From Escherichia coli (GTDB lineage: Bacteria > Pseudomonadota > Gammaproteobacteria > Enterobacterales > Enterobacteriaceae), in assembly GCF_001677475.2 (NCBI RefSeq), contig NZ_CP015229.1: a DNA stretch of 64,000 nt. One strand, written 5' to 3'. Each line of letters starts with the position of its first letter. Position 1 is the stretch's first letter. Both the position numbers and the translations under genes were made by a program. This document shows positions 31,815 to 32,356 of the stretch, one piece after another. Under the pieces are notes generated by a model, which ran no database searches, was not told where the DNA came from, and worked only from the letters and a program-made list of their open reading frames with translations.

Positions 31815-31838
31815 GCAGCGGCCAATGCCGCTGTTTTA
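31815..31838 (+). terminator. rho-independent terminator after mom
   Basis: GCAGCGGC-CAAT-GCCGCTG then TTTT. Confidence 0.55.
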
Positions 31839-31943
31839 TCTTGAATAACTTCCATATGCGCGCTTCTAACTTATCTTGAAAGAATTCCATATCTATCTTG
31901 AATAATTTTGCGCGCTTTATATACCGCTCGATGAGTATCTTCA
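31838..31943. repeat. right end of Mu-like element: four TATCTTGAA/TATCTTCA sites ending in ...CTTCA
   Basis: Copies at 31838, 31872, 31894, 31936; read inward the end is 5'-TGAAGATAC..., same TGAAG start as Mu right end. Confidence 0.5.
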
Positions 31944-32203
31944 AGCTCGATATTCCCATCGTAAACATCTGAGTAGACAAGATCGCCGGTGTGATCTGTA
32001 ACCGATACGAGCGCAAGAAAATCAGCTGGACAAGCAAGTGATTTACAGGTCTGATCAGTGAAGCGTATCCGCTTGATGTGCCCCGCCCTATCCTGGTAGG
32101 TTCCCAATGCTTTTCTTAGCAGGGATTCCAGCAAAGCAGGTTCATCCGCAATCAAAGGTGTGAAGCGGGATTTGACGTCTTCGAGTAATTGTCGTGGTGT
32201 CAT
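31944..32203 (-). pseudogene. 5' part of a P1-like gene truncated by the Mu-like insertion
   Basis: ATG 32203 with GAGG RBS; reading frame runs into the Mu end repeats and stops at 31871. Confidence 0.45.
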
Positions 32204-32209
32204 TGAAAC

Positions 32210-32244
32210 CTCGTAGAATCTGGTGTGTTACCCGATTCTACGAG
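32210..32244. promoter_or_regulatory. 11-bp perfect inverted repeat overlapping the RBS of the truncated gene
   Basis: CTCGTAGAATC (32210-32220) and GATTCTACGAG (32234-32244), 13-nt spacer. Confidence 0.35.
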
Positions 32245-32356
32245 TTGTCATTTGTTACCGGTCAGTCTACACATTTCAGATGCTGCGTTAAAAAACCCAA
32301 GTACTTCAAGTAGCACATCGTCATCAACACCCAGCCCCAAGATACGGTGATAAAAT

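Follow-up and report, generated by a model that had tools for sequence, protein, structure and literature searches.

The window analysed here, a 64,000-nucleotide stretch of Escherichia coli contig NZ_CP015229.1 (assembly GCF_001677475.2), passes near its middle from Mu-like into P1-like DNA, and this raises the question of which element entered which, by what kind of transposition, and whether the product can still travel as a phage. An earlier note on this DNA, made from its letters, had read the locus as a Mu-like phage that was inserted into a P1-family phage-plasmid and split one of its genes, and had suggested that such a plasmid could mobilise Mu between hosts. The insertion itself is borne out: the split gene is pmgC, and both junctions occur in independent assemblies. 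We assign a probability of about 0.85 to the reading that a Mu-like phage with TA termini transposed into pmgC of an IncY P1-family plasmid, and that the window joins this phage to the left arm of a prophage of the Mu type.

The assignment of the left side to Mu and of the right side to P1 holds. The genes com (30962..31147, plus strand, Pfam Zn_ribbon_Com) and mom (231 aa, 31098..31793, plus strand) are 89% identical to those of Mu, SfMu and D108, and the first 5 kb of the window are about 83% identical to the early region of Mu (the end of A, then B and gam). The window opens inside the transposase gene and does not reach the left flank or the leftmost 3 kb of the element. What is present of this gene is the MuA-type 3′ end, comprising the last 92 codons (2..277, plus strand), with 83% DNA identity to Mu and 100% to a canonical Mu-type prophage referred to below as L065; its translation, which ends in ...LDILEQKRRKKAI and a stop, is nearly identical to MuA residues 568–663. 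The gene is followed by one for a MuB-type AAA+ transposition ATPase of 319 aa (319..1278, plus strand), and in chromosomal prophages the identical 319-aa protein always adjoins a MuA-type transposase of 662–666 aa (Pfam DDE_2, Mu-transpos_C). The middle and late genes (2001..30839, plus strand: gam, gemA, mor, lysis, terminase, portal, head, sheath, tube, tape measure, baseplate, tail fibre and DUF4376) are near-identical in both of the transposition types described below; an exact look-up with the 763-aa tail-fibre ORF gave no match. On the other side, P1, P7 and hundreds of IncY plasmids match the window from 31920 to 64000 at 96–100% DNA identity, and the backbone is collinear with that of P1 (pmgC, c4/icd/ant, kilA, repL, ban, parAB, repA). 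The P1-family (Punavirus-like, IncY) backbone to the right of pmgC (32357..64000) carries an SH3-domain gene, c4/icd/ant, kilA, repL, dam, ban/dnaB, parAB and repA-region genes.

The boundary was previously placed at about 31943, which is wrong by 24 bp. Alignment to relatives and to uninterrupted plasmids puts the phage/P1 junction at 31919/31920: the P1-family matches all start at 31920, not at 31944, while the terminal stretch of about 130 bp that the window has in common with five E. coli chromosomes ends, among these chromosomal relatives, at the base matching 31919, after ...TTGAATAATTTTGCGCGCTTTA, beside unrelated host genes. The phage terminus at 31919 reads ...GCGCGCTTTA, and its last bases are TA, not CA; read inward, the end is TAAAGCGCGCA, and the Mu equivalent is TGAAGCGGCGCA. 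The CTTCA that had been taken for a Mu-like end (TGAAG inward) belongs to pmgC. The same applies to one of the four repeats that had been counted at the phage end, TATCTTCA at 31936–31943, which is an inexact copy of the phage-end repeat; because this repeat and CTTCA are both present in an uninterrupted plasmid (the repeat at 4017–4024 of L001), they are native pmgC sequence and not phage DNA.

The other three copies do lie in the phage end. The right end (attR) of the TA-ended Mu-like phage (31837..31919, minus strand) comprises three TTCAAGATA sites, at 31894–31902, 31872–31880 and 31837–31845, and the terminus ...GCGCGCTTTA. Counted as TATCTTGAA, which is TTCAAGATA on the minus strand, the motif is enriched in the window (4 occurrences vs 0.55 expected), and a count of 4 was reached in none of 100 shuffles. 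A stray exact TTCAAGATA at 30303–30311, in the DUF4376 gene and 1.6 kb inside the element, is probably due to chance. The arrangement at both ends can be seen in the complete relative in VL40, whose 37.8 kb contain exactly six copies of the 9-mer TTCAAGATA, three per end in inverted orientation and none elsewhere, with the first site at nt 18–26 from each terminus. MuA-type binding sites are absent from attR at pmgC, and homology to the Mu type ends at 31836, just past the mom terminator, a bidirectional terminator-like hairpin at 31816..31835. Ends of the TA-ended lineage were located at window 31837–31919, at 2705–2860 and 37240–37323 of L003, and in L004, L005, L002/L006 and L047/L057.

The effect on the split gene is seen by comparison with an uninterrupted P1-family plasmid. 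The best match, the IncY plasmid CP099272.1 (97.7 kb), is 100% identical to the window over 31920–34500, and its intact pmgC encodes a product of 188 aa, not 110 aa, and lacks the phage-end repeats. The minus-strand ORF of 110 aa that had been noted from 32203 to 31871 is confirmed as a fusion, in which PmgC residues 1–95 (31920–32203), identical to those of the intact protein, are followed by 15 residues and a stop from the phage end (31871–31919). This exact fusion product occurs on nine contigs from at least five samples. A late promoter, LPsit, is predicted by homology to the P1 annotation at 32235..32253 on the minus strand (-10 TAGAAT and -22 region). In P1 it lies just upstream of pmgC and drives pmgC-tub-pmgB-sit; here it is cut off from tub-pmgB-sit and faces 35 kb of phage DNA that starts with the terminator-like hairpin.

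The left junction was recovered by exact-protein look-ups of C-terminal pmgC fragments, which gave contigs on which a Mu-like early region abuts pmgC′-tub-pmgB-sit. It reads ...CATTCAGCGGGTATA/TATGACCAAGTAAATTATTCAAGATAA..., and GGGTATA/TATGACC is present in eight loci, including L054 of GCA_018683295.1. The empty site in CP099272.1 is ...CATTCAGCGGG TATA CCGCTCGATGAGTATCTTCAAGCTC, that is GGG-TATA-CCG, and the right copy of TATA stands at 31920..31923. A target duplication, as had been expected for the left end, is therefore found, but it is the 4-bp TATA and not the 5-bp AGCTC. The phage left end at pmgC′ is TATGACCAAG and not TATGACTAGG, as was initially expected. The right junction and its matching left junction were found across at least ten independent assemblies; GCA_018683295.1 is the sole assembly with both, the right one on L012, which is 100% identical to window 30618–42203, and the left one on L054. 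Both junctions with a shared TATA in independent assemblies indicate a genuine transposition with a 4-bp duplication, and the pmgC insertion is inherited in a circulating plasmid lineage. Exact-pattern scans of viral, genome and metagenome contig collections for the right junction found none, the junction is absent from the records of PLSDB, the complete E. coli genomes and the phage collection, and the exact whole window has no public record in the collections searched.

A stagger of 4 bp characterizes the lineage and not only this site. Four chromosomal copies with ends TATGAC...CTTTA are flanked by the duplications TTCA, ATTC, GAAA and TAAG, with mismatching neighbouring bases on both sides, and a further end pair in one assembly gave TGAA. 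The duplication is thus exactly 4 bp at all six sites, TATA included, and two of them were checked against real empty sites, the second being the K-12 nrfA-nrfB site, where TAAG occurs once. A 5-bp duplication with one mutated base was considered and rejected on the same counts and neighbours. The Mu-type prophage of bR_120_Kylling, examined as a control, has TG...CA ends and the 5-bp duplication CGGCC. This six-site data set defines one E. coli Mu-like lineage with TA termini and 4-bp duplications.

These results leave hardly any room for a single intact Mu-type prophage that ends in CTTCA at 31943, duplicated 5 bp near AGCTC and still has P1 as its vehicle. CTTCA does stand at 31939–31943, and com/mom and the early genes are 83–89% identical to those of Mu. 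Against this, 31920–31943 is intact pmgC, identical to the uninterrupted plasmid, the relatives all end at the equivalent of 31919, the left junctions show TATA and not AGCTC, the right end has no MuA-type sites, and pmgC is essential for P1 (PMC9024508).

Transposition by the TA-ended phage is further indicated by its range of insertion sites. The terminus ...GCGCGCTTTA was found beside seven flanks, namely pmgC, vgrG, alanine racemase, a MolR-family regulator pseudogene, nrfA/B and those of L057 and L058, and unrelated flanks beside one precise terminus are the mark of insertion by a transposable (Mu-like) phage. The arm that is joined to pmgC′ in related assemblies carries genes for a repressor of 171 aa, a Ner-like protein of 83 aa, a transposase of 698 aa and a MuB-like ATPase of 317 aa, whereas the window's own arm is of the MuA/MuB type. 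In the 698-aa transposase, the Pfam domains HTH_Tnp_Mu_1 and Mu-transpos_C are recognised along with a weak rve core, and its identity to MuA is 25%; the MuB-type B of the window and the B of the TA-ended type share 38% identity. Since the identical 698-aa transposase also occurs at three other chromosomal flanks (L047, L048, L053/L056), the phage has been mobile. None of the features of a canonical Muvirus (TG...CA termini, a 5-bp duplication and MuA sites at attR) is found at the pmgC end, while Mu-type prophages related to the left arm do show TG...CA ends (both in bR_120_Kylling, TG in L065). Judged by its ends and its cognate transposition genes, the element in pmgC is not of the Mu/D108 transposition type.

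The left arm of the window belongs to a different prophage from the right end. Window 1..12244 (plus strand) is 100.000% identical to L065 of GCA_016118665.1, a canonical Mu-type prophage whose sequence ends at the position matching 12244, so that identity is known up to there. The left end of L065, TGTATTGATTCAC... (TGTATTGATTCACTTGAAG), abuts yncD-yncE-ansP on a 38-kb chromosomal contig, and the prophage also occurs at a second locus; a search of complete genomes for the yncE-locus prophage found none. Compared with the window, the pmgC′-linked copies have 25 differences to the left of 1962 and others at 2332, 2452, 2528, 2539 and further on, and the window to the right of 30618 is 100% identical to the P1-linked contig. 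An arm that matches a Mu-type prophage at least as far as 12244 is thus joined to the P1-linked right end of the TA type, and by these identities the switch between the non-cognate arms is placed somewhere between 12245 and 30618. At 1963..2066 the SNP pattern passes from that of L017, the Mu-type reference, to that of L047 and L050, which are of the TA-ended lineage; this is an old mosaic boundary, and it is present in L065 as well. Since its left arm is of the Mu type and its right end of the TA type, the hybrid should be unable to transpose as a unit, given that MuA-site sequence is absent from the TA-type end.

Three explanations of how the two arms came together were weighed. More than 20 kb are common to both prophage types at 99–100% identity, including an identical mom, and the identical Mom protein is found beside TA-type or Mu-type right ends in different genomes. 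Homologous recombination between the TA-ended prophage of the plasmid and a chromosomal Mu-type prophage would exploit this identity and produce a P1–chromosome cointegrate with two reciprocal hybrid prophages. The phages are evidently mosaics of exchanged modules, and the window is contiguous without any N, which mildly favours a resolved real structure. The linkage was found in no second assembly and the reciprocal product was not seen, however, and the configuration would be reversible and might be a minority form, so that we give recombination slightly less than an even chance.

The same long identity could also have led to an assembly mis-join, in which a TA-ended prophage in a free P1 plasmid and a separate Mu-type prophage at yncE were crossed in their shared late region, and we regard this as nearly as probable. 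In strains with the P1 insertion, short-read contigs break exactly at the two limits of the identical region, on the left at the equivalent of 1961 and on the right at 30618–31807. Late-region contigs of these insertion strains are 100% identical to the window over 11–15 kb within the loci read, and, being 24–27 kb long, they cover about 4.9–29 kb of the window equivalent, which implies a long near-exact repeat. Moreover, it is the TA-type left arm that is joined to pmgC′ in GCA_018683295.1. On the other hand, the gap-free 64 kb suggest that long reads resolved the repeat, and most long-read assemblers leave unresolved repeats unjoined. Short-read assemblies that hold both junctions do not show which arms are linked. 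We lean slightly towards real recombination over mis-assembly.

Mu transposition can also fuse replicons, with a Mu copy on either side, as is well established. A classical fusion of this kind, by replicative transposition from the chromosome into P1 with a copy left at each junction, needs the same end type twice, whereas the window is Mu-type on the left and TA-type at pmgC, and in related strains a TA-type left arm is joined to pmgC′; we consider it very improbable. A double crossover that replaced only A/B was rejected, because nucleotide homology between the two arm types begins only at kil and is absent from the left end up to and including B.

The broadest interpretation, which we hold only tentatively, is that these E. 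coli and Yersinia phages form a Mu-like branch with TA termini and a 4-bp stagger, in which one phage body is combined with interchangeable transposition modules, and that the window is a real recombinant. One module would consist of MuA/MuB with TG-CA ends and a 5-bp duplication, and the other of the 698-aa A and the 317-aa B with TA-TA ends and a 4-bp duplication. If true, the recombinant has united a P1 phage-plasmid with the chromosome, and what remains is an immobile hybrid prophage with mismatched ends. Phage bodies that are near-identical over many kb (99–100%) do occur with the two non-homologous modules (window 1–31836 vs L010, L017, L025, L047 and L065). The left arm and the right end, which lie 30 kb apart, must be exchanged together, and the transposition module of these phages would be swappable as a unit. 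Near-identical plasmid and chromosomal prophages can recombine or confuse assemblers, which bears on how contigs of this kind are interpreted.

Two genomes contain damaged members of the TA-ended lineage. The closest complete-genome relative of the right arm, in nrfA/nrfB of RM9088 (L002), is 100% identical over 31509–31921 and carries many IS21 and IS66 insertions, one of them inside mom; its early region is absent and replaced by IS elements. The TA-ended prophage in fliH of STEC388 (L011, at 1.94 Mb, and NZ_CP041425.1 at 2.85 Mb) has its ends 0.9 Mb apart; its early half has given way to IS66, IS26 and Tn7-like genes, a sign of IS-mediated rearrangement. STEC388 was considered as a natural hybrid of both phage types and rejected, since its TA-ended prophage is truncated by IS66/IS26.

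The closest isolated relatives of the transposase (82% aa identity) are those of the Yersinia phages vB_YpM_5 and vB_YpM_6, which were isolated as virions and are filed under Muvirus. Their termini, TATGA...GCGCGCTTTA, are those of the pmgC phage lineage (for vB_YpM_5, at about 340–355 and 436–450 of L078), but their internal sites are TTTGATAC instead of TTCAAGATA and their host is different. Mu, D108 and SfMu resemble the pmgC phage in gene order, com/mom, late genes and the layout of sites (L1 ... L2 L3 / R1 R2 R3), and they differ in having a CA terminus, a 5-bp duplication and another site sequence, as against TA, 4 bp and a transposase with 25% identity to MuA. The left arm of the window (A C-terminus and B) is truly of the Mu/D108/SfMu type. 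TA...TA termini are also known from transposable prophages of Leptospira, which are B3-like, make 6-bp duplications and are unrelated in sequence to the pmgC phage (PMC8705779). According to that 2021 paper, Mu- and B3-like phages had until then all been TG-CA with 5 or 6 bp, and TA-TA ends, with 6 bp, were known only from Leptospira (PMC8705779). On this statement, and within a small survey of the literature, the pairing of TA termini with a 4-bp duplication, as seen in these phages of E. coli and Yersinia, may be undescribed.

The nesting of one mobile element in another has precedents. Sp18-like Mu-like phages lie in Stx prophages of STEC CC119 (PMC10132054; LC727881, LC727895), likewise a transposable phage inside a mobile element, and the transposase of the CC119 Mu-like phage is 76% identical to the 698-aa transposase cognate to the pmgC end. 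In closed CC119 genomes, six of ten such Mu-like phages sit in mobile elements (Nakamura et al. 2023, PMC10132054). The host element there is a lambdoid Stx prophage and here a P1-family phage-plasmid, and because Mu-like phages in E. coli mobile elements were already documented, the P1 target is a new instance and not a new kind. In PLSDB no plasmid with this phage was found, nor any P1-like plasmid with a close relative. The P1 replicon has likewise been a target of IS elements and transposons (P1 mod749::IS5; resistance-transposon plasmids, PMC9603915). The insert differs from those in being a 35-kb phage in an essential morphogenesis gene, with phage function probably lost.

The probable loss of phage function follows from what is known of P1 genetics. 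The ~130-kb replicon would have to be packaged by a headful mechanism that holds about 100–110 kb for a 94-kb genome, and terminal redundancy would be lost beyond that limit. The gene pmgC is an essential virion gene, and by CRISPRi all four of pmgC, tub, pmgB and sit are scored essential (PMC9024508, PMC10695390). With pmgC ending at codon 95, the P1 part is without the full set of essential virion genes (essentiality from PMC9024508, PMC10695390). The TA-ended phage inserted at codon 96 of pmgC in the IncY plasmid, duplicated TATA and left the 110-aa PmgC(1–95) fusion stub behind. This would have removed the essential head-tail adaptor PmgC, uncoupled LPsit from tub-pmgB-sit and enlarged the replicon to ~130 kb by an insert of ~35 kb, so that the P1 part would be only a plasmid.

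Since pmgC and the LPsit operon are essential, the P1 part has probably lost its life as a phage, and the transport of Mu between hosts that had been proposed earlier is unlikely; the ~35 kb added to a headful-limited genome point the same way. By these arguments from P1 genetics, the P1 moiety is probably no longer infectious and limited to persistence as a plasmid. It is more plausible that the phage leaves the plasmid in its own virions than that P1 carries Mu. The insertion would turn a P1-type phage-plasmid into a plain plasmid. Plasmids of the P1 type are monitored because they carry resistance genes, and the insertion would alter how such a plasmid can spread.

A number of smaller features of the two elements were also recorded. 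The tail-fibre segment at 29217–29340 resembles the tail-fibre genes of P1-like plasmids (about 84% identity), a likeness that echoes the relationship between the Mu G segment and the P1 C segment, which are related. The prophage has neither gin nor an invertible segment between the tail-fibre genes and com. About 500 bp of the semi-essential early region (4001–4500) find a match only in VL40 among the eight relatives in a sliding profile; L065, which lies outside this profile, is 100% identical over 4001–4500, and the stretch is a small variable cassette. On the plasmid side, the position of P1 simC-simB-simA (32357–34315) is occupied by genes for an SH3-domain protein (344–355 aa), a YfjT-family protein (158 aa) and a 116-aa protein, and the superimmunity position of this plasmid thus holds a different cassette from that of P1. 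Just after repL, at 38083–38787, a gene for a DUF3800 protein (234 aa) and an adjoining gene for a 154-aa protein are probable accessory cargo of this plasmid lineage.
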